DNA from: Ostreococcus lucimarinus | Taxonomy: Eukaryota | Reading direction: 5' to 3' (one strand) | Length of the DNA: 64,000 nucleotides | Assembly (NCBI GenBank): GCA_000092065.1 | Contig: CP000589.1 | Shown here: positions 6,228 to 57,463 of the stretch, piece after piece | Layout of the letters: every line of letters starts with the position of its first letter | Numbering within the stretch: the stretch's first letter is position 1 | Notes under the pieces: model-generated | Seen by the model: the letters and a program-made list of their open reading frames with translations, nothing else | Database searches by the model: none | What the model was told of the DNA's origin: nothing | Translations under genes and position numbers: made by a program

Positions 6228-6726
6228 GACGGGGCGTCGGCGCGCGCGTCGCGGTGTGGCGACGCGCGACGCGCGCGCGTCGCGTCGGCGCCGAGGCGCG
6301 TCGAAATGCCCTCCGGCGCCTCCCGGCGCGAAGGCGTCGGAATCGACGCGCGCGCGGTGGACGCGCGCGACGACGGCGTGGGAATCCAACCGACACTTCA
6401 CGACGCGCGGCTCGCGCGGCGCATGCGCGCGCGCGCGCCCTCGTCGACGGCCTCGATCGCGGCGCATCGAACGCGCACTACTACACCGGCGCCGACGCGC
6501 CGACGCGTCGCGAGACGCGCGGAAACGACGACGGCGCGCGCGGACGAGACGCGCGCGAGAGGTCGAGACGGTCGACGAGACGGCGGGATGACGAGACGCG
6601 CGCCGAGCGTCGCGCGCGCGCGTCGACGCGGCGGCGGCGGTCTGTGCGGGCTGGGCGCGACGTCGTCCCGCGCGGTTTCGAAGGATTCCGTCATCTTCAC
6701 GTTCGAGCGCGGTCGCGCGGACGGTG

Positions 6727-6810
6727 CGCGCGCGCGTCGCGCGTCGGGAGCGAACGAGACCGCGCGAACGAGACTGCGCGCGCGTCGCGCGTCGGGAGCG
6801 AACGAGACTG
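6727..6810. repeat. Direct repeat of ~34 bp (gcgcgcgtcgcgcgtcgggagcgaacgagac) with 50-bp period; GCGAACGAGAC core present three times
   Basis: Seen directly 30-110 bp upstream of the PPDK ATG. The same repeat shows up as the repeated peptide ARASRVGSERD/ANETARTRLRARRASGANET in a spurious ORF. Confidence 0.8.
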
Positions 6811-6838
6811 ACGCGCCGCGTTCGCAGGTTCCAAGGAC

Positions 6839-9526
6839 ATGAAAGAGCTGCTCGGTAGCAAGGGCAGCGGGTTGGCGGAGATGGCGAGATTAGGTTTGCG
6901 CGTTCCCGCGGGTTTCACCGTCTCGACGCGGTGCTGCGAGCGTTACGAGCAGTCGGGAATGGACTTCGTGCGTCGGGAGCTCTGGGAAGAAGTTTTGGAC
7001 GGCGTCGCGTTCATCGAGAAGACGACGAAGCGGACGGTGTTTCGATCCGGGTGCTCGTTGGTAGCCGCGCCGCCGCTGTTGCTGAGCGTTCGATCGGGCG
7101 CGGCGGCGAGCATGCCGGGGCAGATGGACACGGTGTTGAATCTCGGGATGAACGACGAGTGCGCGCAAGCGTGCGTGAACGCCGGGTTCGATGCGCGATG
7201 GGTCTACGATTCGTACCGCCGTTTGATCTCGATGTTCGGCGACGTCGTCGAACATCTTCCGAAACAAGATTTTGAACGCGCGCTCACGAAGGCGAAGGAA
7301 ACGAATAACGCTCGTTACGACACCGAACTCGACGCCGAGGCGCTGAAACTGCTTTGCGGGGAATTCAAAGACATCTACGCGAAGCACGGCAAAGTCTTCG
7401 AGCAGGACGCGATGAAACAGTTGGAACAGAGTGTCGTCGCGGTTCTTGAATCGTGGAACACGCCGCGCGCGGTCGAGTATCGCGAAATCAATCGCATCAC
7501 TGGTCTTCGCGGCACGGCGGTAAACGTACAGCAGATGGTTTTCGGGAACATCAACGACAATTCCGGCGCCGGCGTGTGCTTCACGCGCAATCCGGCTGAC
7601 GGCGCGGATGAGACGTACGGTGAGTACCTCGCGCAATCGCAAGGAGAAGACGTCGTCTCGGGCGTGCGGACACCGATGGGGCTGAAAGCTATGGCGGAAT
7701 CGCAACCGAAGGCGGCGGAAGAGCTCGAATCGGTGTGCGACGCGCTCGAGGACGATTTCAAAGACATGTTAGACATCGAGTTTACGATCGAAGATGGCGA
7801 GCTTTACATTTTGCAATGTCGTGTCGGCAAAAGAACGGGAACGGCGGGCGTGCGAATCGCAACGGAGATGTTTGCGGAGGGAATCATTTCAAAAGATGAA
7901 GCACTCATGAAAGTCAACGCGCAAAGTCTCGAGCAGGTTCTGCATCCAGTTTTTCTTCTCGACGCCGCGTCGCCGGATTACTCGTCGAAAATCGTCGCCA
8001 GCGGTTTACCCGCGTCTCCAGGCGCGGCCGTCGGTCGAATCGTGTTTTCTTCCAAGGAAGCGAAAGAGTACAAATCACAAGGGAAACCGTGCATTCTGGT
8101 GAGGGAAGAGACGAGCGCAGACGACATAGGAGGCATGTACGCGGCGGAAGGCATTTTGACCGCGCGGGGAGGGATGACATCGCACGCCGCCGTCGTCGCT
8201 CGGGGATGGGGCAAGCCGTGCGTGAGCGGATGTGGCGCCATCAGCTTTAAGAATGATCGCGAGATTCGCTTCGGGACGAGCGATCGCACGTATCGCGCCG
8301 GTCACACGATTTCCATCAACGGCGCGACCGGTGAGGTGATCGACGCAGAACTCGCGGTGGCGCCGAGCACGATTGACACTTTCTTACCTCTCAAGACTCT
8401 GATGCACTGGGCCGATGAGAAGCGCCGTGTTGAGATCCGAGCCAACGCGGACACGCCCGAGGACGCGGCGGCGGCGATTCGCAACGGCGCGAAGGGCATC
8501 GGATTGGTTCGCACAGAACACATGTTCTTCTCATCGACCGAACGCGTGCACGCAATTCGCGAGTTTATCATCGCGCAAGATGAGCAAGCGCAAAAGGTGG
8601 CGCTCGAAAAGTTGGAAAAGTTTCAGTACGAAGATTTCAAAGGAATTCTGAAATCTGCCGGGGGCTTTCCCGTGACGATGCGCTTGATCGATCCACCTCT
8701 TCACGAATTCTTGCCGTCCCGCGAAAAACTGCGCGAAGGAGCGGCGAACGAAATGTCCAAGTACATTCACGGAAAATCAGCGCACGACATCATCGAAATC
8801 GCGGAGAGCATGCGCGAGCACAACCCAATGCTTGGTTTCCGCGGCTGCCGATTAGGATGCGTCAAGCCTCGCATTACGCGCATGCAAGTCCACGCGTTTT
8901 GTCGAGCCGCGATCGATCTCATCGCCGAGGGCGTGCCCGTGGAACCTGAAATCATGGTCCCGCTCGTGAGCACAGTGGAGGAGTTTCACAACCAACGGGA
9001 TTTGATCTGGGATGTCATACGAGATCTCGGGCGCGAAAATCAGGCTCCGCCGATGCGCGTGCAAGTCGGCGCCATGATCGAAACTCCGCGAAGCGCGCTC
9101 ATCGCCGGCGAGCTCACGCGCGCAGGCGCCAGCTTCTTCTCTTTCGGCACAAATGATCTCACGCAAATGACGTACGGATTCTCCCGCGACGATAGCGACG
9201 CCTTCGTCAAGCCTTACAAAGACATGGGCATTCTCCAAAGCGACCCGTTCGAGATTCTGGACACCGTCGGCGTGCGCGAACTCATCTCCATCGCCGCCGA
9301 ACGCGCGCGCGCCGTGCGCCCGGACGTCGAGCTCGGGATATGTGGCGAGCACGGCGGTGATCCAAAGTCTTTAGTCACCATCGACGCGCTGGACTTGGAC
9401 TACGCCTCGTGTTCGCCGTCGCGCGTGCTCGTCGCGCGCCTCGCCGCCGCGCAAGCCGCCGTCGGCGGCGCGCCGTCCAAACAGCGAAAGCGCGCCGCGC
9501 GCTCGCACGCCTCCCCAGCCGCGTGA
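6839..9526 (+). CDS. PPDK: pyruvate, phosphate dikinase
   Basis: Full-length collinear match to PPDK: N-terminal ATP-grasp region (MKELLGSKGSGLAEMARLGLRVPAGFTVST), central phosphohistidine domain (GGMTSHAAVVARGWGKPCV), C-terminal PEP-utilising TIM barrel (GLVRTEHMFF...GICGEHGGDP). No transit peptide in the ORF. Confidence 0.95.
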   Translation: MKELLGSKGSGLAEMARLGLRVPAGFTVSTRCCERYEQSGMDFVRRELWEEVLDGVAFIEKTTKRTVFRSGCSLVAAPPLLLSVRSGAAASMPGQMDTVLNLGMNDECAQACVNAGFDARWVYDSYRRLISMFGDVVEHLPKQDFERALTKAKETNNARYDTELDAEALKLLCGEFKDIYAKHGKVFEQDAMKQLEQSVVAVLESWNTPRAVEYREINRITGLRGTAVNVQQMVFGNINDNSGAGVCFTRNPADGADETYGEYLAQSQGEDVVSGVRTPMGLKAMAESQPKAAEELESVCDALEDDFKDMLDIEFTIEDGELYILQCRVGKRTGTAGVRIATEMFAEGIISKDEALMKVNAQSLEQVLHPVFLLDAASPDYSSKIVASGLPASPGAAVGRIVFSSKEAKEYKSQGKPCILVREETSADDIGGMYAAEGILTARGGMTSHAAVVARGWGKPCVSGCGAISFKNDREIRFGTSDRTYRAGHTISINGATGEVIDAELAVAPSTIDTFLPLKTLMHWADEKRRVEIRANADTPEDAAAAIRNGAKGIGLVRTEHMFFSSTERVHAIREFIIAQDEQAQKVALEKLEKFQYEDFKGILKSAGGFPVTMRLIDPPLHEFLPSREKLREGAANEMSKYIHGKSAHDIIEIAESMREHNPMLGFRGCRLGCVKPRITRMQVHAFCRAAIDLIAEGVPVEPEIMVPLVSTVEEFHNQRDLIWDVIRDLGRENQAPPMRVQVGAMIETPRSALIAGELTRAGASFFSFGTNDLTQMTYGFSRDDSDAFVKPYKDMGILQSDPFEILDTVGVRELISIAAERARAVRPDVELGICGEHGGDPKSLVTIDALDLDYASCSPSRVLVARLAAAQAAVGGAPSKQRKRAARSHASPAA

Positions 9527-12527: not shown

Positions 12528-12572
12528 GCGTCGAGAATAGCGCGCATCAGCATCGTTGTAACGCCGCGCGTT

Positions 12573-12593
12573 CGCGTCTCGCGTCTCGCGTCT
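12573..12593. repeat. (CGCGTCT)3 tandem heptamer
   Basis: Seen directly in the CLC 3' flank. Confidence 0.8.
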
Positions 12594-12705
12594 CGCCTCG
12601 GCGCTCAAACTCAAAACCCTAACCGGCTGACGTGGTCGACGCGTGTCGTTTCTCCGGCGTCAAATCGCCCCTCGCACAACGGCGCGCTTTGACGCGTCGC
12701 GCGCG

Positions 12706-12816
12706 ATGGGGGCGTACCTCAGCCAACCGGTCACGCGCAAGGACTCCACCGACGGCGCCGACGCGCGCTTCGCGTACGGCACGACCGCGATGCAGGGGTG
12801 GCGAACGAACATGGAG
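12706..12816 (+). CDS. protein phosphatase 2C, exon 1 (MGAYLSQPV...TAMQGWRTNME)
   Basis: Encodes the conserved PP2C N-terminus including an N-myristoylation-type MGAYLS start and the QGWR..ME motif. It ends exactly at a GT (ATGGAG|gtgcga). Confidence 0.75.
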
Positions 12817-13082
12817 GTGCGACGACGACGAGATGACGCGGACGCGACGACGCGACGACGACGGCGCGCGCGTCGTCGCGACGAGCGGCGAACGCGACGA
12901 CGACGGACGCGCGATGGGAAAGAAACGCGACGCGACGACGCGCGCGCGCGAGCGATGGAGACGACGACGCGCGAGGGACGGCGAAAGAGCGCGACGGCGG
13001 GGACGACGACGACCTGGCGAAGACGCGAGGCGGAGGCGCGAAAGCGGAGGGACTGACGAGCGCGCGACGCGCGATGAAACAG
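12817..13082 (+). other. spliceosomal intron of the PP2C gene (GT...AG, 266 nt, phase 0), purine-rich and almost T-free
   Basis: Exon 1 (frame 1) and the main PP2C ORF (frame 0) are in different frames. Splicing gtgcga...actgac(25 nt)...acag|GAC restores the conserved ME|DAH motif. A CTGAC branch-point-like pentamer lies about 25 nt upstream of the AG. Confidence 0.7.
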
Positions 13083-14150
13083 GACGCGCACGCGACGATA
13101 TTGGATTTGGACGCGGATACGGCGTTTTTTGCGGTGTTCGATGGACACGGGGGGAAGGAGGTGGCGATGTACGCGGCGAAGCGCCTGCACGAGACGCTGA
13201 AGGAGACGGAGAGCTACGTCGCGGGGGACGTCGCGAGAGGATTGGAGGAGAGTTTTCTCGCGCTCGACCGGAAAATGCTGGCGAAGGAGGCGGCGGGAGA
13301 GTTGAAGGCGTTCAGGGCGGGCGGAGAAAAGGACGATTCGAGCGGGTTCGGGGGATTGCTGGGGGACGGCGCGAGCGCCGAGGAGCAAAAGAATCGGCGA
13401 GCGGAGATCAACGCCAAGCTTCGCGCGGCGTTGATCGAACAGGTCAAGGAGTCCAACCCGGACATCGATGAAAATGATATTAAATTTGATTTTGAATTGG
13501 AGGATGGAGATTTTAACGAAATTGCGAGCTCGAGCGGCGGCGACGGCGCCGACGACGCCTCGCACGAAAATTGGACGGGCCCGCAAGCGGGCGCGACCTC
13601 GGTCGTGGTGTGCGTTCGCGGTGACAAGGTGTATTGCGCCAACGCCGGGGACTCTCGAGCGGTATTCTCGCGGAAAGGCGGCGAGGCTGTCGAGATGAGT
13701 GAGGACCACAAACCGATGAATGACGGCGAGCGCAAGCGCATCATAAACGCGGGCGGTTTCGTCAGCGAAGGACGAGTCAACGGCTCGTTGGCACTGTCTC
13801 GCGCGTTGGGAGACTTTGAGTACAAGATGAACAAAGAGCTCGACGAAAAGCAGCAAGCGGTGACGGCGTTTCCGGAGATTAGAGAATTCCAACTGCAAGA
13901 GGGCGATGAGTTCATGATTCTCGCGTGCGACGGCATTTGGGATGTCATGTCGTCGCAAGAGTGCGTGAATTTCGTGAGAGAGCGACTCGTTGCGAAGCTC
14001 AAGTCGGGCGAGAGCGACTTGAAACTGAGTCAAATATGCGAGGAGCTTTGCGACAGGTGTCTGGCGCCCGACACCAGAGGCTCGGGCCTGGGATGCGATA
14101 ACATGAGCGTCGTCGTCGTCCTACTGAAGAAATTTTGTTCGATTGCGTGA
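13083..14150 (+). CDS. protein phosphatase 2C, exon 2 (catalytic domain)
   Basis: PP2C motifs: DAHATILDLDADTAFFAVFDGHGG, VVCVRGDKVYCANAGDSRAV, LSRALGDFEYK, ILACDGIWDVMSSQE. Confidence 0.85.
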   Translation, partial: DAHATILDLDADTAFFAVFDGHGGKEVAMYAAKRLHETLKETESYVAGDVARGLEESFLALDRKMLAKEAAGELKAFRAGGEKDDSSGFGGLLGDGASAEEQKNRRAEINAKLRAALIEQVKESNPDIDENDIKFDFELEDGDFNEIASSSGGDGADDASHENWTGPQAGATSVVVCVRGDKVYCANAGDSRAVFSRKGGEAVEMSEDHKPMNDGERKRIINAGGFVSEGRVNGSLALSRALGDFEYKMNKELDEKQQAVTAFPEIREFQLQEGDEFMILACDGIWDVMSSQECVNFVRERLVAKLKSGESDLKLSQICEELCDRCLAPDTRGSGLGCDNMSVVVVLLKKFCSIA

Positions 14151-14224
14151 GCGAGCATCGAGCGGAAGGCGTAATCACGCGTAGACTTCTTAATACTGTT
14201 GTTGAAACCATACAAGTACTACTA

Positions 14225-14914
14225 CTACCGCACCCGCTCCTCGTCTCTCGCGTTCAACACGTCGACGCCTTCTCGCTCGAGCTCGTCCGCCAGAGCCATG
14301 ACGAGGGGTTTGTGGAACCGAGCGCGCGCGTTGATGAAGAAGTTGCCGATGGCAAACTCGCTCGACCCGATCTCGCGCGCCAACCGCCGCTTCTCCTCCC
14401 GCGTCGGGAACGGATGATCGAAATGGGCCAGTATCCACGACCGCAGCACTCGCTGCCCCTCCTTCGACCCGAGCCTTCGACGCCGCGGCTCGGCGTCCCT
14501 CGACGCGACGGCTCGCGCCTTCTCCGCCCGCAGTCGCGCCGACGCGAACGCCGCGCGAATCCCCGACCTCGCGCACTTCGTGATTCCCGACGGAAGCGTG
14601 AGCTCCATTTTCGCCCGCAGCGTCTCGAATCGCCGCTCGACGTCGTCCAGTCGCCGCTCGTACGCCGCGAGCGCGTCGTCGCGCATGTCGCGTCGAGTGT
14701 CGATTTGAGTCCTCGAGCGGCGCGCGCGACGCCACTCGGCGACGTCCCTCGGCGACGATCGCGCGCGACGAGCGTCTCGCGCGCTTGATCGAGCGTTTCC
14801 CGCGCGGTCCTCACGCGCGCTCCCGCGCGTCGTCGCGCGTCGTCGTGTGTCGAGTCGAGCGTTGTGAAAAAGGTGTTCAGTGTTGGCGTCGCGCGCGCGC
14901 GGCATCGACACCAT
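14225..14914 (-). CDS. TALE-class homeodomain protein (KNOX/BELL-like)
   Basis: C-terminal homeodomain with the three-residue loop extension typical of TALE: VLRSWILAHFDHPFPTREEKRRLAREIGSSEFAIGNFFINARARFHKP (compare WLFEHFLHPYP...NWFINAR.R.WKP). Real ATG at 14912-14914. Confidence 0.6.
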   Translation of the reverse strand: MVSMPRARDANTEHLFHNARLDTRRRATTRGSAREDRAGNARSSARDARRARSSPRDVAEWRRARRSRTQIDTRRDMRDDALAAYERRLDDVERRFETLRAKMELTLPSGITKCARSGIRAAFASARLRAEKARAVASRDAEPRRRRLGSKEGQRVLRSWILAHFDHPFPTREEKRRLAREIGSSEFAIGNFFINARARFHKPLVMALADELEREGVDVLNARDEERVR

Positions 14915-18475: not shown

Positions 18476-19519
18476 CTACGCGGAGGCGTCGAACGGGGAC
18501 GCGCCCGAGACGCCGTCGAATTTGCAATTCGAAAAGTCCATCTCGGGGTGCGCCGCCATGAATTTTTTGAGCGCGTCTTGCTTCGTCTGCTCGTCCGCCG
18601 TGGGCAAGCCCATCGCCTTTTGCCTTTGATCGTACATCATTTTTTCCACCGTCGAGCGCGTTTCGCCGTCGAGATCGTCCAGGCGGCTGTTCTCGGGTTC
18701 GACCTTTTTGGTGTCGATTTTCGGGTCGTCGACGAGGACGTGCGGCCACCACTCGGCGCCGGTTTTCGCTTTTTGTAAAAAGCACGACACGTAGGCGTTG
18801 TCCTCCAGCGTCCAGTAGCACTCGTCCGGGGTGATGGCGGCGTAGAACTCGCCCTCGATGCGCGGCTCCCCGCTCGCCGTTTTAAGCTTGAACGAGAATC
18901 TATTCTTCGCGAAGGCGCACTCGATCTCCTTCGACTTGGTCCCCGGCGGCACCGCCACGCGCACCTCCAAATCATCCAACGTCTGCGTCCACACGTACTT
19001 CTCCGCTTCGCCGCCGTTCCCTTTATTCGGCATCATCGTTCCCGGCGCGAGCGCGTGCGGATCCTCCTCTTCCGCGTCGTTCGTCGTCGTCGTCGCCGTC
19101 GCCGCCGCCTCGGCGTCCTCGGTCACCTCCGTCAATTTTCCCTTACTTTTCTCCATCTGCATCTCCAGCGTTCGCGCTCGCAGCGCCTCCACGCGCTGTC
19201 TCTCCGCCTCCTCCATCGCCCGCGCCTTCGCCGCGTCTCTCTCCGCCTTCAACCGCGCCGCGTCGTCGTCGCTCGCCGTCGCCGTCGTCGCCGCCTTCGC
19301 CGCCTTCGCCGCCGCTCGACCCCGCGTCGTCTTTCCCAGCGCCTCCCGCACCGCCGCCCCCGCGCGCTCGGCGTCGACGAAGAAATCCGTTTTCTCATCC
19401 AGGAACGCGAAGAACGCGTCCAGCAGCGTCGCGATCGGCGTTTCCCCGGGCGCGGCGTTCGCCGCGCAAATCTGCGCCGCATTGATGAAAAGCGCGTCCG
19501 TCTGCCGTCTGTGCGCCAT
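18476..19519 (-). CDS. NudC (nuclear distribution protein C) with CS domain
   Basis: N-terminal NudC-N helical region. CS/p23 domain: YVWTQTLDDLEVRVAVPPGTKSKEIECAFAKNRFSFKL...ECYWTLEDNAYVSCFLQK...EWWPHVL. Conserved C-terminus. Start is set at the internal ATG (MAHRRQTDALF); the rest of the 721-aa ORF is antisense to the divergent neighbour. Confidence 0.9.
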   Translation of the reverse strand: MAHRRQTDALFINAAQICAANAAPGETPIATLLDAFFAFLDEKTDFFVDAERAGAAVREALGKTTRGRAAAKAAKAATTATASDDDAARLKAERDAAKARAMEEAERQRVEALRARTLEMQMEKSKGKLTEVTEDAEAAATATTTTNDAEEEDPHALAPGTMMPNKGNGGEAEKYVWTQTLDDLEVRVAVPPGTKSKEIECAFAKNRFSFKLKTASGEPRIEGEFYAAITPDECYWTLEDNAYVSCFLQKAKTGAEWWPHVLVDDPKIDTKKVEPENSRLDDLDGETRSTVEKMMYDQRQKAMGLPTADEQTKQDALKKFMAAHPEMDFSNCKFDGVSGASPFDASA

Positions 19520-23064: not shown

Positions 23065-23811
23065 TCATCGCTGAATGACGACGGCGCCGGCGAGACCGGC
23101 GTCGGCGATGACGGCGTCGTCGTCGGAGAGCGTTTTCGGCGGAAAGCCCGAGAGCTGCAGCGTGTACGCGAAGGATTCATCCGGGCGCGATCTCGCGATG
23201 AAAGAGTGGATGTGCGCGACGGTGTGCGTGGTGTTGAACTTGGCCACCAAACGGCTTCCGTCGCGAAGTCTGATTTGAATCGACGTCGTCGGTTGGGACT
23301 CGTCGACGTTCCACTCGACCGTCGACGCGGGCGCCGTCGATGCGGGCGCCGGTTCGCTGTCGCTCGCGAGCGTGCGCCCGGATCCACCGAACGCCCTGTA
23401 CTTTGGCTCTTTCGGCGGTACGTACGGCTCGTGACGCTGCACTAAATTGATGTTCACCCGTTCGGTTCTGCTCCGCGGCGCGAGCTCCGCCGGCGCCTCG
23501 CCGCGTCCGATGGACTCCATGAACGCCACGTTCGCGGGGTCATCGAACGTGCGCAGCGGTCCATCATCGACCGTGAACCCATTCTGCCAAAACGTGACGA
23601 CGCGACTGACGATCCCATCGTCCGCGTTCGCCGCCGTCGCCGCGCTCGCTTCCTCTTCGTCCGCGGCTTCTTCCTCCGCGCTCGAGTTCAGCGTTCGCCC
23701 GCGTCCTCGAAACGCCGTCGCCGCCCCGCCTCGCGCGCCTCGACTTTCATTCGGGTTCAAATCCTCCGCCGTGCCGTCCATCGCACCGTGCGCGCGAGCG
23801 CTGTCGAACAT
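23065..23811 (-). CDS. p47/Shp1-like cofactor (SEP + UBX domains, no UBA in the contiguous ORF)
   Basis: SEP domain: VTFWQNGFTVDDGPLRTFDDPANVAFMESIGRGEAP. UBX domain: TTSIQIRLRDGSRLVAKFNTTHTVAHIHSFI...LQLSGFPPKTLSDDDAVIADAGLAGAVVIQ. The ORF-track start at 23940 is GTG with an in-frame TGA just upstream; the first ATG is 23809-23811. The true N-terminus may lie on an upstream micro-exon (see findings). Confidence 0.8.
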   Translation of the reverse strand: MFDSARAHGAMDGTAEDLNPNESRGARGGAATAFRGRGRTLNSSAEEEAADEEEASAATAANADDGIVSRVVTFWQNGFTVDDGPLRTFDDPANVAFMESIGRGEAPAELAPRSRTERVNINLVQRHEPYVPPKEPKYRAFGGSGRTLASDSEPAPASTAPASTVEWNVDESQPTTSIQIRLRDGSRLVAKFNTTHTVAHIHSFIARSRPDESFAYTLQLSGFPPKTLSDDDAVIADAGLAGAVVIQR

Positions 23812-24231
23812 CGACGCCAGTCGCGCGTCGGGTCGCTCTCGCGGGTCGATCACCGCCTGCCCACTCGACGCGCCGCCCGTGTACCACTCCTGCGGATCGG
23901 GGCCGTTCGAGTCGGAGGCATCGTCGTTGCGTTCGTTCACGTCGCGCAGGCCGCGAACGTTGGACTGCGAGCGCGGTCAGTCGGTTGATTTCGATGTCGT
24001 TGAGATTACTGAGATGACCACGCGAGCGCGCGTCGCGCGTCGATCGGGACGAATCGCGCGCGCGCGGGCGTACCATGTCGCGCGTGTTTCGTCGTGCGCG
24101 CCGTCGAGCGATCGGGAGACGTCGCGTCGCGAGGTGAGGTTCGTAACTGCTCCCGACTGGAACTACAATGACAAAGAGAAGAGTCGCTAGGCGTCTTCGT
24201 CGCCGGCGCCAATGCGGCGCCAAGGTGTCGG

Positions 24232-26991
24232 CTATTTCTTACCGCGGCGCTTCTTCTCCGCGGACGCCCAGCCGGCTTCGTTGTCCTCGCCGTCGGCACC
24301 GGAGAACCCGGGACCGGCGCCTTGAGCGGCCACCTTGGCGAGCTCGCCGTTGCCCAAACCTTCGGCGAGCGACGGGTCGGCGCGCTTTTGACGGATGAGC
24401 TCGACCGCGAACGCGCTAGCCTGCGGGGTTTTGCCCAAGTATAACGCGACGTACTCTTGAACCTCGCCCGCGGAGGGTAAACCGAGCAAGAAATCCACCA
24501 AAGTCATGTCGTCTGAATTGTTCAACTGGGACATTTGCGCCTTGCACCACGCGCGCAGGGCGTTTTTGTTGTTCAAAGGAGGCAAACCTGAAGGCAAGGG
24601 GGCGCTCGACGACATCGCGGACTGCGTGAGAGGGGCGACCGCGTTACCGATGACGGGTCGAGCCTTTGGCGCCTGCGACTGAGGCACAGACCTCGGCACC
24701 ACCATCGGCGCGGACGGACGCGGCGCGACTTGACTCGGCGCCGCGGCGGCGGCCCAGCCTCCAGAAGTTTGCATCGCCTGGTTTTGCTGGGCCATCGCCG
24801 CTTCAGCCTCGTGTTTCGCCGCGGCGCGCAACGCTTCCTCTTCCTGGATTTGCTTCAAGCTCTTGCCACCGCCGCCAGCGTTGCCACCCCAAGCCCCGCC
24901 GAAAGCGGTGTGCGTGCTCGGGGGCGGCGCGTTCTTCGCCGCTTGCGCGGCGCGCGCCTCTTCCTCGCGTTGAATATCCAGGAGCGTCTTACCGGCGACC
25001 GCCGCTGGTAGTGCAGGAGCGGCACCACCCCAGGCTGGTCCAGTCGGCGCCGCCTTCGCGGGTTCTGGTGCGGGTTCGACGCGCGGCGGCATCGTGACGG
25101 GGGGGGGCATCGCCGGCTGCGGCGGCGGTTGACGCGGCACATCTCGCGCTGCCGGTGGCGCGTCCCACTTCGAAGACGCATCCGCGCTCGCGACTTCTTG
25201 TCTACCACTTCTATCGTGCATGTGTCTGTTCTCGATGTCCGCGAGCGTCATACCGCGAGCTCGTGGCGGCGCCCCGCCCGCTTGACTAGATATCCCCAAG
25301 CCCGCGGCAAAGTTGGCGAGAGCGTTCGATCTCGCCGCTTGCTGCGACATGGCTTTAGGAGCGATGCCGTGCGACTGCTCTATCTCTTCTAACGTGAGAC
25401 CTCGCGGTGGAGGCGCTCCGGAAGGTTGCGCCTGCTGCGAGAGCCACGGTGGTAAACCGCCCTGCTGTCGCGGCGGCGGCGCCTGTTGTTGCGGCGGCGG
25501 CGCCTGTTGCATCGGGATGCGGTAGCGCCAGCCGTTTTGCAAGAGTTCGATTAACGGCATGAAGGGCGCACCGGCCGGAGCGTCGATCGGTTTGCACGGT
25601 AAATCGTTCGGAAAGAAGCCGCCTTGATGCCATTCTATGAGCTCTTGACGCGTGAACGGGCCCTGTTGCTGTCCCGAAGGATCGAGATAGAGCCAGTCGA
25701 CGTTTGCCGGTACCGGAGGCGGCAACTGCTGCTGCGTAGGCGGCATCTGTTGTCGTTGCTGCGGTGGGATCTGTTGCTGCGGCGGCGGCATCTGCATCGG
25801 CGGCATCTGCATCGGCGGCATCTGCACCGTTTGTTGCGGCGGCGCCTGCATCATGCCTCCGATGTGAGAGAGGTGCGGCATGAGCGTCTCGTCCTCTTCT
25901 AAAGCGACGAATCGAGATGTTCTCGATTGTTCTTGCGCTGGAACCGCGGGCTTGCCGAGACCAGCCAAACCGAGTCGTTCCTCCGCCGTGAGCTGCGGCA
26001 GCGCGGTACCCAAGAAAGAATCGTCCGTCAAGCTGGCGTCAGCCAAAGAGTTGCCTTCTTGAGCCCACTCGGGGACGTCGTCTTTCGCCTTACGGGTCGT
26101 CGTCGCCGCCGACGCCGCCGTCTTCGGTTCGGGCACCGGTTCCTTCTTCTTCTGCCAGTCGCCGTGGCGACCAATCATCGTCAGCTCCCACATCGGATCT
26201 CCCGGTTTGATCGCCTTCAACGGCACGTTCGTCCCGCACACGTCTTCTGGCAACTTACACGTCTGCAAAGCCTCCATCTCGCGCAGAATCGTCACCAACT
26301 GGGCGGCATCGTAGCGATACTTGGCGCCGTTCTCCTTCTTTTCTGGCGGCGTCTCCGCCGGCGCCGCGTCGTCGCCCGTCTTTTCGCCGTCGTCCGCAAA
26401 CTGCCCGCTCGCCGCTTTTCTCGCCATCACCGCATCGAAGAACGCATCGCTCACGCTGCTCACTTGCAACGCCCCCAAACTCAGCTCCAACGCCTGCCCG
26501 CCGCTCTTCCCGCGTCCCATCGTAAAACCGCGACCGGCGGGTCTCGTCGGAATCCCTTCCCGCGCCTGCGCGCGTCCGCTTCCGTGTCGTCCGCGCCCTT
26601 CGCCTCCCTCCGCCTTCGCATCGCCTCCCTCCGCTCGCTTCCCATCGCCGTCGATCCACGCCTTGGACCCCCACGAATCCCTCGCGTCTCGCTTGCCCCA
26701 CCCCGGCGGTCCGCCATCCTTCCCGTACTTCTCCCGTCGCTCACCTCGACTCGCGCGCTCGCGTCTCGACCCCCCGCTCGCCGCGCCCTGTCCATCGCCA
26801 TCGCCTCGCCACTTTACCTTCGCTTCCTCGCGCGTGTCGCTCTCTCGTCTCGCGCCGCCGTCGTGCGACTTTCGCGCGTCGCCGTCGCGATCGCGGTGTC
26901 CGTGCCCGTGCGCCGTGTGCCACCCCCCCCCGTCGTCCTGCCCGCGCGCGCTCGTCGCCCTCGACCCATCGTCGCCTTTCGCGTCGCTCAT
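24232..26991 (-). CDS. GYF-domain protein, Gln/Pro-rich (GIGYF/SMY2-like)
   Basis: GYF domain: NVDWLYLDPSGQQQGPFTRQELIEWHQGGFFPNDLPCKPID. Long PQQ/PPM low-complexity stretches. Real ATG at 26989-26991. Confidence 0.8.
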   Translation of the reverse strand: MSDAKGDDGSRATSARGQDDGGGWHTAHGHGHRDRDGDARKSHDGGARRESDTREEAKVKWRGDGDGQGAASGGSRRERASRGERREKYGKDGGPPGWGKRDARDSWGSKAWIDGDGKRAEGGDAKAEGGEGRGRHGSGRAQAREGIPTRPAGRGFTMGRGKSGGQALELSLGALQVSSVSDAFFDAVMARKAASGQFADDGEKTGDDAAPAETPPEKKENGAKYRYDAAQLVTILREMEALQTCKLPEDVCGTNVPLKAIKPGDPMWELTMIGRHGDWQKKKEPVPEPKTAASAATTTRKAKDDVPEWAQEGNSLADASLTDDSFLGTALPQLTAEERLGLAGLGKPAVPAQEQSRTSRFVALEEDETLMPHLSHIGGMMQAPPQQTVQMPPMQMPPMQMPPPQQQIPPQQRQQMPPTQQQLPPPVPANVDWLYLDPSGQQQGPFTRQELIEWHQGGFFPNDLPCKPIDAPAGAPFMPLIELLQNGWRYRIPMQQAPPPQQQAPPPRQQGGLPPWLSQQAQPSGAPPPRGLTLEEIEQSHGIAPKAMSQQAARSNALANFAAGLGISSQAGGAPPRARGMTLADIENRHMHDRSGRQEVASADASSKWDAPPAARDVPRQPPPQPAMPPPVTMPPRVEPAPEPAKAAPTGPAWGGAAPALPAAVAGKTLLDIQREEEARAAQAAKNAPPPSTHTAFGGAWGGNAGGGGKSLKQIQEEEALRAAAKHEAEAAMAQQNQAMQTSGGWAAAAAPSQVAPRPSAPMVVPRSVPQSQAPKARPVIGNAVAPLTQSAMSSSAPLPSGLPPLNNKNALRAWCKAQMSQLNNSDDMTLVDFLLGLPSAGEVQEYVALYLGKTPQASAFAVELIRQKRADPSLAEGLGNGELAKVAAQGAGPGFSGADGEDNEAGWASAEKKRRGKK
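25784..25828. repeat. 15-bp tandem repeat x3 (ggcggcatctgcatc), coding
   Basis: Encodes the MPPMQ MPPMQ MPP stretch inside the GYF-protein gene (minus strand). Seen directly. Confidence 0.85.
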
Positions 26992-27234
26992 CGCGCGATT
27001 CGCGCGTCGTCAGCGTCGTCGGCGCGCGGATTCTCCCGCCCGCGTCCGATCGACCGATTCGATCGAATCCGGCGTCGCGTCGCCTCGCGCGCGCTCCGCG
27101 GTGGCGCGGCGCGCGTCGTCGTCGACCGCGACGTCGTCGCCGAGAGCGCGTCGTCGCGACGCCGTGCGCGTCGCCGAGTCGCGCGCGCGCGTCGAATTGT
27201 CGCGCGATTCGATGCGTCGTCACTCCGCGTCGTC

Positions 27235-27972
27235 ATGCGCGCCGCGGCGCGCGTCGCCGGGGCGCTCGCGAGGCCCGGGCGCGCGCGTCGTCGAGCGTTC
27301 GCGCCGCGGCGCGCGTCGCCGCGTCGCGCGTCGACGCGCGCGGGCGCGGGCGCGCGCGACGACGGGGACGGCGGGCGACGCTTCGTCGCGCCGAGCGAGG
27401 GCGCGACGGCGGCGCTCGCGCGGGCGCTCGCGCGCGTCGCGCGCGAGGGAGACGTGATATGCCTGCGCGGCGACGTGGGGGCGGGAAAGAGCGCGTTCGC
27501 GCGGGCGTTCACGCGCGCGGCGACGGGGGACGACGGGCTGGACGTGCCGTCGCCGACGTATCTGGTGCAACAGCGGTACGACGCGCGCGAGGGAAGCGAT
27601 GGCGGGAGAGGGATGCGCGTGCATCACTACGATTTGTATCGCCTGCGGGACGCGAGCGAGATCGAGGCGATGGTGGATCTGGAGGAGAGCGCGGAGAGCG
27701 CGGTTTCGGTGCTGGAGTGGAGCGAACGGTTGGGACGGTTGACGCCGGAGACGCGGTTGGAGGTGCGAGTGCGCGCGATCGGGGCGGGAGAGCGCGCGTG
27801 CGGTGAGGTGGTGGATGACTCGGGCGAGACGGCGAGCGAGGAGGGCGACGAGGAGGGCGAGGAGGAGGAGGAGGAGACGGACGCGGCGTACGTGGACGTC
27901 GCCGCGCGATCGTTTCGGTTCGTCGGTTTCGGCGGCGATTGGGCGGATCGAATCGCGCGGATATCGCCGTAG
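27235..27972 (+). CDS. TsaE/YjeE-family ATPase (t6A tRNA-modification accessory protein) with N-terminal presequence
   Basis: Walker A and family motifs collinear with bacterial TsaE: GDVGAGKSAFARAFTRA...VPSPTYLVQQRY...HHYDLYRL. A ~60-aa Arg/Ala/Ser-rich leader suggests organellar targeting. Start is set at the internal ATG (MRAAARVAG). Confidence 0.8.
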   Translation: MRAAARVAGALARPGRARRRAFAPRRASPRRASTRAGAGARDDGDGGRRFVAPSEGATAALARALARVAREGDVICLRGDVGAGKSAFARAFTRAATGDDGLDVPSPTYLVQQRYDAREGSDGGRGMRVHHYDLYRLRDASEIEAMVDLEESAESAVSVLEWSERLGRLTPETRLEVRVRAIGAGERACGEVVDDSGETASEEGDEEGEEEEEETDAAYVDVAARSFRFVGFGGDWADRIARISP

Positions 27973-51080: not shown

Positions 51081-51085
51081 ATGGC
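51081..51085 (+). CDS. putative micro-exon 1 (ATGGC) of the ribosomal protein L6e gene
   Basis: ATGGC|gtacgtgg is followed about 400 nt later by ctgac(29 nt)...gacag|TAAGACG. Splicing gives M-A-K-T-K-K-Q-V-K-N-G-Q-P-S-F-Y-P-A-D-D, a typical short basic L6e N-terminus (compare yeast MSAQKAPKWYPSEDV). The unspliced alternative is an acidic 43-aa extension from ATG 51362 that is atypical for L6e. Confidence 0.35.
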
Positions 51086-51489
51086 GTACGTGGCGATGCG
51101 AAGCGCGCGATGCGACGCTCGATTCGCGCGCGACGGCGGGGCGATCGGGGCGCCGTGGACCGCGGCGCGCGCGCGACGGCGGGGCGGGGCGTCCGTCGGC
51201 GTGAAAGCCCTAGCGTTGGGACGAGCATCGCGTCGCGCTCGATCGAGCGCGCGCGGGGGGGCGGCGACGCGCGCGCGATCTCGCGGATTTGTCGTGCGAA
51301 ATCGTGCGCGCGATCTCGCGCGCGCGCGGCGCGCGGGCGGCGCGCGGCGGGCGAGGTCGGGATGAAGTCGCCGACGCGGAGGGTTTCGCGCGCGCGATCG
51401 GGATGCGCGCGCGACGACGGCGACGACGCTGGAACGGTGACCGCGAACGAGACGACTGACGAAAACGCACGTTTATTTCACGATGACAG

Positions 51490-52045
51490 TAAGACGAAGA
51501 AACAGGTGAAGAACGGGCAACCGAGCTTCTACCCCGCCGATGACATCAAAAAGCCGCTGAAGCGCACGATCGAGCACAAGCAGACCAAGCTTCGCGCATC
51601 CATCGCGCCCGGTCAAGTGCTGATCCTTCTCGCTGGACACTTGAAGGGTAAGCGCGTGGTGTTCTTGAAGCAGCTCGAGTCTGGGTTGTTGCTCGTCGCC
51701 GGTCCGTACGGTGTGAATGGCGTGCCGGCGAAGCGCGTGAACCAGCGCTACGTCATCGCGACGAGCGAAAAGGTTGACGTGAGCGGCGCCGCCGCCGCGG
51801 CGGCCAAGTTCACCGATGCCTCGTTCAAGAAGCCGGCGAAGGATCGCAGTAACAAGAAGAGTGAAGAAGAATTCTTCAAGGTTGACCTCGCGAAGAAGGA
51901 GCTTCCGGCTGATTACCTCGAGAACAACAAGGCTCTCGACAAGGCGCTCGGCGACGCCATCGCGAAGACGCCGTACCTCAAGGAATACATGTCCACGCTC
52001 TTCACTTTGAAGTCTGGCGACAAGCCGCATGAGATGAAGTTCTAA
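51490..52045 (+). CDS. 60S ribosomal protein L6e (main exon)
   Basis: KKQVKNGQPSFYPADDIKKPL...KLRASIAPGQVLILLAGHLKGKRVVFLKQLESGLLLVAGPYGVNGVPAKRVNQRYVIATSEKVD...LKSGDKPHEMKF is collinear with eukaryotic L6e. The 5' end is defined by the proposed acceptor. Confidence 0.85.
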
Positions 52046-55831: not shown

Positions 55832-57463
55832 TTATAGTAGCAGTTCAGAGAGTTCATTTCCTTCGTCTTGTCCATCGCCGCCGAGCGAAAGTTGTGCGAG
55901 TTTTGCCGCTTCGAATTCCGCGGACAACGCGCACAGTTCGTCGTAAATCAAACCTCGAACATCGGTATCTGTCAGATATTGGGCACCGTCTTCAAAGTCG
56001 AAGGTGAACGGCGACTCAGCGCACGGTTCGTCGACTTCATCGTGAAGCGATTCCAGGTATGGATGCGCCAACGCCTCCTCGACGGTGATGCGCCTCGCCG
56101 GGTCGAGCACGAGCATCTTATCCACCAAGTCCACCGCCTTGGGCGAAGCGTTGGGGAACAACTTTTGAAAGCTACATCGCGCGGTGACTGGAAGTGATTT
56201 GATGTAACGCTTCGCCTTTTCGTTGTTGATGAAATCAAGCTCGGATGGGTTTTGCGGCGTTCCGATGACGCGCATGATCAAATTCAATTGGTGCACGTAA
56301 TCTTTCCCCGGAAAGAGCGTCTTTCGCCCGAGCAACTCGGCGAAGATACAACCGACGCTCCACACATCGATAGCGCTCGTGTACTCGGCGCAAGAGAGCA
56401 ACAGCTCGGGCGCGCGATACCACCTCGTCACGACGTACTCCGTCATGAACTCGGACGCCTCCGCGTCCACGAGCGCGGTGCGCGCCAATCCAAAGTCACA
56501 AATCTTCAAATCGCAGTTCGCGTTCAATAATAAATTTCCAGGCTTCAAGTCTCGATGCAGCACGTCGGCGCTGTGAATGTACTTTAACCCGCGCAAAATC
56601 TGATAGACAAAGTACTGACAGTGCTCATCCGTCAGCGACTGCGAACTGCGAATGATTTGGTATAAATCGGTGTCCATGAGATCGTACATCAAATAAACGT
56701 CCTCAAACGCATCCTTCGCGCGAGGTTTCACGCAATCGATGATATCGATCACGTTCTCGTGCCTCAAGTGTCGCAACAGCTTGATTTCCCGCAGCGTCCG
56801 CTTCGCGTCCACCACGTTCTCGAACGCGTTCACAATCTTCTTAATCGCCACCTTTCTATTCGTCTCCAACTCTCTCGCGCTACACACCACCCCGTACGCC
56901 CCCTTCCCGATCGGTTTTATGGGCGCATACTTGGCGTCCACCTCGAACACCGTCCCGCACACGGCGAACTTGGACGTCACCGCCGCCGTCCCCCGTCCCG
57001 ACCGTCCTTCCCTCTCCCGTCGCGCCTTTCGTCGTTTCGCCCTCGCCGCGCGCACGACGTCATCCCCACCACCGTTCTCGTCCCCTCCCTCGACCCCTCG
57101 TCGTCGTCGTCGTCGTCGTCGTCGTTCGCTCGCGTTCGCGTCTCGCGTCCCCTCGCCCGCCTCCGATTCGCTCTCGTCCGTCGTCGTCTCCGTGCGCGAC
57201 GCGCTCTCCGATCCCGTGCACTGCGAGTCGTCGTCCTCCGTCGTGCTCATGTACGCCCGCGCGTCGTCGTCGTCGCCGTCGTCGTCGTCGCGAATTCGCG
57301 TCGCGCCGTCTGCAATCGCGTCGTCGTAATCATCGTCGCTTTTCGCGTCGCGCGCCGCGGCGCTCGCGCGCCGCGCCGCGTCGTCGTCCGCGAACGCGCC
57401 TCGCCCGCGTCCCGCGCGCGCGTCGCGCGGCGACGGCGTCTCCGCGCTCGACGCGCGCGCCAT
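55832..57463 (-). CDS. mitogen-activated protein kinase (TEY activation loop, ERK-type) with acidic/Arg-rich N-terminal extension
   Basis: [49 protein letters not shown] domain near the C-terminus. In-frame ATGs exist at 57721, 57463 and 57250. 57463 was chosen because the 57721 start would lie inside the divergent PRMT coding region. Confidence 0.9.
57098..57124. repeat. (TCG)9 trinucleotide run, coding
   Basis: Seen directly; encodes the poly-Arg stretch (RRRRRRRRR) in the MAPK N-terminal extension (minus strand). Confidence 0.9.

Follow-up and report, generated by a model that had tools for sequence, protein, structure and literature searches.

An ordinary spliceosomal intron with an extremely T-poor interior in a PP2C phosphatase gene of Ostreococcus lucimarinus

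The stretch of DNA analyzed here, 64,000 nucleotides (nt) of contig CP000589.1 (assembly GCA_000092065.1) from Ostreococcus lucimarinus and hereafter called the window, carries on its plus strand a gene for a protein phosphatase of the PP2C family. An earlier note, made from the letters alone, had proposed that an exon encoding MGAYLS...RTNME ends at a GT and that the catalytic frame resumes right after an AG, 266 nt further on. Reading of the sequence, checked by script, reproduced this arrangement base for base, and the gene is organized as follows.

12568 to 12705, plus strand: 5' untranslated region (UTR) of the PP2C mRNA, minimum extent; the transcript-like contig L012 begins at 12568 and is colinear with the window up to the ATG
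12706 to 12816, plus strand: exon 1, coding, 37 codons (MGAYLSQPVTRKDSTDGADARFAYGTTAMQGWRTNME, MGAYLS...RTNME), from the sequence read and the script
12817 to 13082, plus strand: phase-0 GT-AG spliceosomal intron, 266 nt, 3.4% T, from spliced contigs, DNA contigs and XP_001419634.1
12817 to 12823, plus strand: 5' splice site GTGCGAC, of which the first 5 bases equal those of the published consensus GTGCGTG (PMC2483917)
12819 to 13050, plus strand: degenerate short tandem repeats of the intron interior, from Tandem Repeats Finder and direct-repeat families
13051 to 13058, plus strand: branch-point motif GACTGACG, an exact match to the extended consensus (PMC2483917)
13081 to 13082, plus strand: 3' splice site AG in the context AACAG (...AAACAG), from the sequence read
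13083 to 14150, plus strand: exon 2, coding, 355 codons plus the stop TGA at 14148 to 14150, from translation and a Pfam match
14151 to 14227, plus strand: 3' UTR up to the poly(A) addition site, where the match to contig L013 ends

Exon 1 starts with the ATG at 12706, upstream of which no other ATG was read within 12568 to 12705, and its final codon is GAG (12814 to 12816). It bears an MGxxxS motif at the N terminus, and the metal-binding motif RxxMED has its first half here. Exon 2 opens with GAC GCG CAC at 13083 (DAH, in DAHATILDL...) and encodes the PP2C catalytic domain, which includes an acidic insert and the motifs DAH..., DGHGG, DGIWD and GCDN. Since 266 leaves a remainder of 2 on division by 3, the reading frame changes between the exons. 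Phosphatases of the PPM/PP2C type are characterized by the metal-binding motifs RxxMED, DGHGG, DG(I/V)WD and a DN near the C terminus. Reading the PP2C translation by eye, we found FDGHGG, CDGIWD and GCDNMS, together with GWRTNMED, which is present only after splicing. The joined protein matched the Pfam profile PF00481 (PP2C) with an E value of 7.4e-76 and a score of 255.6 bits, the cut-off being 20.3; the acidic insert divides the match into two stretches. Both the profile and the motifs thus place the spliced product in the family. An exact-sequence look-up assigned the window to O. lucimarinus CCE9901 and showed that the 392-amino-acid (aa) product is identical to XP_001419634.1, ABO97927.1 and UniRef100_A4S313, and the intron is therefore already part of the public annotation. 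An origin from Micromonas, which the GC content and the CGACG-rich sequence had suggested, was rejected on the strength of this match.

Independent evidence for the junction came from four spliced contigs (L010 to L013), which are environmental and were assembled from four sequencing runs of one series (SRR28369058, SRR28369074, SRR28369094 and SRR28369125). Outside short end stretches of L012 and L013, they are 99.3 to 99.9% identical to the window; those end stretches, of 130 to 266 nt, are 96.9 to 98.5% identical. All four lack exactly positions 12817 to 13082 and read ...AACATGGAG|GACGCGCAC... across the junction, so that the exons are joined at 12816/13083 precisely where a splice had been predicted. 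Furthermore, L013 continues directly past 14227 with 20 A, where the genome reads CCGCACCC, and its tail is thus non-templated poly(A). This contig is direct mRNA evidence for the 12816|13083 junction. The proposed phase-0 intron at 12817 to 13082, rebuilding ...GWRTNME|DAH..., agrees with both the XP_001419634.1 model and the polyadenylated contigs. In contrast, the intron is kept as an insert of 263 to 268 nt in seven independent DNA assemblies (L001, L002, L014 to L016, L019 and L020), and every metagenome DNA contig of this population that we examined retains it. A relative that is 75% identical (L003) has a contiguous ME-DAH, while the matching DNA contig, L004, carries non-exon sequence before DAH; L003 looks like the spliced form of the gene of the L004 lineage.

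The splice signals noted earlier from the sequence (a GTGCGA donor, a branch-like CTGAC and no polypyrimidine tract) are all present. CTGAC lies at 13053 to 13057, within GACTGACG, and the A at 13056 is the putative branch point, with the last base of the intron 26 nt further on. From the branch motif to the AG there is a single T and hence no polypyrimidine tract. In O. lucimarinus, the introns outside chromosome 2 that are confirmed by expressed sequence tags, 319 in number, have the donor consensus GTGCGTG; 87% of introns of this class carry ACTGAC and 66.5% carry GACTGACG, and at the acceptor there is a weak preference for CGCAG (PMC2483917). The distance from branch point to AG in this class peaks at 20 to 35 nt (PMC2483917, Irimia and Roy 2008), and the mean intron length in the species is 187 to 188 bp (PMC2367439). 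The PP2C intron has the GTGCG-type donor, a branch motif 20 to 35 nt before the AG and precise removal from the mRNA.

We compared metagenome homologues that share the gene order CLC channel, PP2C, KN homeobox and RabGAP. An intron was found at the identical ME|DAH codon boundary in five other Ostreococcus lineages, whose exon 1 is 76 to 92% identical.

L021 (the closest lineage): 270 nt, 9.6% T, donor GTGCGAC, branch motif GACTGACG
L022: 235 nt, 11.5% T, donor GTGCGCC, branch motif GACTGACG
L005 and L006: 204 nt, 31% T, donor GTGCGTC, no branch motif matching CT[GA]AC
L007 to L009: 268 to 271 nt, 21% T, donor GTACGAT, branch motif GACTAACC
L004: partial sequence, branch motif (G)GACTGACG

All the orthologous introns examined end in CAG (the acceptor of L021 being GCGCAG), which fits the Q codon found ahead of DAH when genes are called in prokaryote style. 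Because the ME|DAH site is shared, the position of the intron predates the split of these Ostreococcus lineages, at least six including O. lucimarinus. The intron interiors could not be aligned between lineages. In L021, the intron (2385 to 2654 of that contig) is built on a different repeat unit, GATGCGAC / GATGACGCGAC, while its first 11 bases, GTGCGACGACG, and GACTGACG are kept. This lineage illustrates complete turnover of the interior over a short evolutionary distance, and the comparison as a whole argues that the PP2C intron is old, conserved in position and fully turned over inside.

The same division between ends and interior was seen among eight O. lucimarinus-type alleles. Within the 266 nt of the intron, 16 columns vary and there are two indels, compared to five variable columns in 1179 nt of exons, which makes the intron about 14 times more polymorphic. 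Exon 1 is 100% conserved, with no variable site. Fifteen of the 16 variable intron columns and both indels fall within the repeat interior (12819 to 13050), and GTGCGA, GACTGACG and the final AG are invariant.

The intron had also been described as almost free of T. Indeed, it holds 116 G, 76 C, 65 A and only 9 T (3.4%), a GC skew of +0.21 and 68% purines. A stretch of 266 nt in the window has 51 T on average; counts of 9 T or fewer occur in just 0.05% of these stretches, all of them overlapping the intron, and the intron itself is the poorest in T of all stretches of this length in the window. Its interior consists of degenerate, overlapping arrays. Tandem Repeats Finder reported (CGA)n in about 31 copies at 12820 to 12905, alternatively described as units of 8, 14 or 26 nt, followed by 29-nt units at 12932 to 13009 and 13-nt units at 13016 to 13050. 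The most frequent hexamers are CGACGA, GACGAC and ACGACG, followed by CGCGCG, GCGACG and GACGCG, and the latter three are among the most frequent in the window as a whole, too. Three other likely introns of the window contain 9 to 16% T and have a small A/T skew. The PP2C intron is thus the extreme of a mild T-poor tendency, and its strong excess of A over T is absent from the other introns of the window and from lineages of lower GC content.

Overall, these data indicate, with a probability of about 95% given jointly for this explanation as a whole, that the PP2C intron, the annotated first intron of a gene for a PPM/PP2C-type serine/threonine phosphatase, is of an ordinary kind, a U2-type GT-AG intron like those typically found outside chromosome 2 in Ostreococcus. 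It would be recognized through its strong GTGCG 5' splice site and a strong GACTGACG branch motif 26 nt before the AG, with no reliance on a polypyrimidine tract, as in other intron-poor eukaryotes. Following the pattern described for such genomes (PMC2483917), strong donor and branch signals may make up for the missing pyrimidine tract. Splicing brings the Glu of codon 37 next to the Asp of codon 38, which restores the metal-binding RxxMED. The interior, being unconstrained, would have been replaced in each lineage with short repeats of its own that are prone to slippage, and the units that expanded in O. lucimarinus (CGA, GCG and GACGCG) would happen to be T-free, producing the extreme poverty in T and the purine skew. 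Repeat slippage is the simplest reading of how the composition arose. Three observations weigh against this explanation. The acceptor, AACAG, departs from the CGCAG that the class prefers, CGCAG being a preference and not a requirement. The T content is an outlier, far under the 9 to 16% of the other introns of the window and the 10 to 31% of the orthologues. Finally, the RNA origin of L010 to L013 is deduced from the poly(A) tail of L013 and from the limits of the contigs.

The composition could alternatively be explained if the T-poor, G-skewed interior were functional, as an R-loop-forming or expression-enhancing tract near the 5' end that selection maintains. Some 250 nt separate the intron from the transcript start, its GC skew and purine content are those given above, and the two closest high-GC lineages are also T-poor and G-rich here (9.6 and 11.5% T) with no sequence homology. 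Furthermore, highly expressed genes of O. lucimarinus are reported to be enriched in introns (PMC2367439). However, introns at the same site in lineages of lower GC content have 21 to 31% T, the interior is far more polymorphic than the exons and carries indels, and the other likely introns of the window have little A/T skew. Similarly, no excess of RNA structure was detected, the predicted fold of the intron being no more stable than that of shuffled sequences (z = -1.23). No Rfam family matched the intron; a single match to mir-598 was rejected since its 21.6 bits are below the gathering score of 69. We therefore regard selection on the interior as unlikely. That three lineages with unrelated intron sequences all have 3 to 12% T at this site hints at a directional force on the introns of high-GC Ostreococcus, for instance a mutation bias tied to transcription, the formation of R-loops or an enhancement of expression, although it is doubtful that such a force shaped the interior.

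A second alternative concerns the contigs L010 to L013, which might come from the genomes of natural strains in which the intron was lost, so that presence and absence of the intron would be a polymorphism. At first sight, L010 and L011 do appear genomic, as they span 5 to 6 kb and contain three or four genes on both strands, including intergenic DNA. Their structure is nevertheless expected of transcripts at this locus. The PP2C transcript starts at most 41 nt past the stop codon of the upstream CLC gene. At the other end, the poly(A) site, which follows 14227, falls on the stop codon (TAG, 14225 to 14227) of the convergent KN-homeobox gene on the minus strand, and the 3' ends of the two genes therefore overlap, with zero intergenic spacer. 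Given this spacing, unstranded transcript assemblies merge neighbors. In addition, the 20-A tail of L013 is not encoded in the genome and L012, covering 12568 to 14319, is of mRNA size. All four contigs that lack the intron come from the SRR28369xxx series, whereas the metagenome DNA contigs examined keep it. Intron-less strains are thus a highly improbable source of these contigs, and we retain the view that they derive from spliced transcripts.

The earlier note had left undecided whether the intron might match a repeated element elsewhere in the genome. According to this possibility, it would be an introner, that is, a recently inserted member of a repeated mobile family such as that of Micromonas pusilla CCMP1545. 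Introner elements were first described in Mamiellales (PMC4540971), and they are defined by many near-identical copies, sense orientation with splicing, and a presence/absence pattern that shows recent gain (Simmons et al. 2015, PMC4540971). The host is indeed a Mamiellales alga, and the composition of the intron is odd, of low complexity and asymmetric between strands; sense orientation and splicing also apply, but as they are true of any intron they do not discriminate. Against this, the best similarity elsewhere in the 64-kb window reached 58 bits, which is the level of composition-matched surrogates (mean, 56.8 bits; standard deviation, 7.0; 11 of 25 reaching 58 bits). BLASTN returned dozens of matches of 36 to 58 bits on both strands of the window, and we discarded these as compositional because second-order Markov and 6-mer block surrogates scored alike. 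In the JGI metagenome collection, a distinctive 20-mer of the intron was found only at the orthologous PP2C locus (L019 and L020), apart from chance matches: at two non-orthologous loci, L017 and L018, the similarity extended over about 23 nt only. Neither the window nor this 20-mer scan of metagenome contigs therefore yielded many copies, a result that bears less on a family of very few copies. The intron at the same site in five other Ostreococcus lineages leaves no presence/absence pattern.

The structure of the ends led to the same view. Huff et al. (2016) reportedly described transposon-type introners as having terminal inverted repeats and a target-site duplication. At the termini of the PP2C intron we found no inverted repeats, the only ones being internal (12864 to 12883 with 12928 to 12947) or involving exon 1, and no duplicated target site was found at its ends, whose flanks share only AG|G. 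Judged on the sequences compared, the intron appears not to be an introner, since its positional conservation makes a recent insertion untenable; we consider an introner origin extremely unlikely, and the evidence answers the question raised earlier with a no.

Finally, the idea that there is no intron at all, the frame change being a frameshift error or translation starting at the ATG at 13074 (a 358-aa open reading frame, MKQDAH..., with the MGAYLS... frame fortuitous), has a practically negligible probability: prokaryote-style gene callers do report exactly this 358-aa frame on metagenome contigs, but the same insert of 263 to 268 nt is present in seven independent DNA assemblies and contains stops in the frame of exon 1, exon 1 is conserved elsewhere (76 to 92%) and matches the N terminus of Mantoniella transcripts that run through ME-DAH, and the spliced poly(A) contig already disproves the idea, the exons being joined in the mRNA contigs. 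Neither of the two findings named at the outset as fatal to the proposal, a different junction or a frameshift error, was made, as the seven DNA assemblies carry the insert and the RNA contigs remove it precisely.

Two single-base insertions were seen in exon 2 of one DNA contig, L001 (ENA ERZ10646569 contig_26099, 211 kb), at the equivalents of window positions 13588 and 14119. They are not found in the six other contigs covering those positions and are probably assembly errors; they account for the frameshifts and split gene calls on this contig, such as the 241-aa P0066.

The surroundings of the gene had been described as otherwise intron-poor. While the PP2C intron itself was confirmed, this description did not hold entirely, since the PPDK gene, 6 kb upstream, has a well-supported intron of its own and two more introns in the window are likely. 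A permissive scan for GT[GA]CG...CT[GA]AC...AG gave 242 candidates and was too noisy to be of use, and we retained further introns of the window only where the extended branch motif was combined with coding continuity. In the PPDK region (6306 to 6838, plus strand), the intron at 6724 to 6827 has 104 nt, 8.7% T, the donor GTGCGCG, the branch motif GACTGACG and the acceptor CGCAG. Splicing at 6723|6828 gives ...SVIFTFERGRADGSKDMKELLG..., which aligns without gaps across the junction to the N terminus of the chloroplast PPDK structures 5jvn, 5jvj and 1vbg (E = 3.8e-22). The neighboring PPDK protein of the window is XP_001419632.1 (895 aa, ATG at 6839), a public model that seems to lack a 5' exon; this upstream exon probably also encodes a transit peptide.

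The second intron, of 404 nt and 12% T (51086 to 51489), belongs to a likely ribosomal protein L6 (RPL6) gene at 51081 to 52045 on the plus strand. Its first coding exon would comprise 5 nt (ATGGC), the candidate intron reads GTACGTG...GACTGACG...CAG, and the predicted product begins MAKTKKQVKNGQ.... The third lies in a likely gene on the minus strand (23065 to 24076) whose first coding exon would consist of the ATG only; its 109-nt intron (23965 to 24073) reads GTACGCC...GACTGACC...CGCAG, and the protein would continue SNVRGLRDVNERNDD.... From its sequence, we would guess this product to be SEP/UBX-like (p47 type). Neither spliced protein was present in the protein collection by exact-sequence look-up, and both introns are predictions. 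Strongly strand-asymmetric patches of low complexity also occur elsewhere in the window, namely a T-poor one at 2081 to 2362 and A-poor ones at 19036 to 19349, 26677 to 27333 and 56969 to 57392, with 12 to 14 T or A per 266 nt; they may be coding stretches rich in Asp/Arg or further introns on the respective sense strands.

Taken together, the PP2C intron is real, was correctly interpreted, is ordinary for the genus and was already known. A correct eukaryotic gene model had been rebuilt from raw sequence, in agreement with both environmental mRNA and the annotation of 2007. It illustrates the published principle that splicing in intron-poor Ostreococcus relies on strong donor and branch motifs, which leaves the rest of the intron, including any pyrimidine tract, free to drift into arbitrary repeats of low complexity. 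What is new here is small: the mRNA and poly(A) support, the population and comparative data on the intron, and a probable missing 5' exon of PPDK.

We finally compared the gene and its intron with known systems. The public entry XP_001419634.1, a "predicted protein" of O. lucimarinus CCE9901, has the same exon boundaries, 12816|13083, with no structural difference. With the PPM1G and plant PP2C-60-type phosphatases, the product shares the MGAYLS... N terminus, the ...QGWR.xMEDAH motif and the acidic insert that splits the Pfam match. Among the named matches are plant PP2C 60 and vertebrate protein phosphatase 1G, with 40 to 54% identity. Regarding the intron, Micromonas introner elements (Worden 2009; PMC4540971) are likewise in sense orientation, spliced, of roughly similar size and from Mamiellales; unlike them, the PP2C intron has no near-identical family that we could find, no presence/absence pattern and no conserved element sequence. 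The small introns of Ostreococcus chromosome 2 are 40 to 65 bp long, with weak signals, a GTRNGT-type donor and no clear branch motif, in contrast to the 266 nt and the strong GTGCG and GACTGACG signals found here. Compared to introns outside chromosome 2, the PP2C intron differs in donor positions +6 and +7 (AC instead of TG), in its AACAG acceptor and in a T content below that of the other likely introns of the window. Nevertheless, it has the GTGCG donor, the GACTGACG branch motif, the branch spacing, the 5'-proximal place and the order of length of that class.

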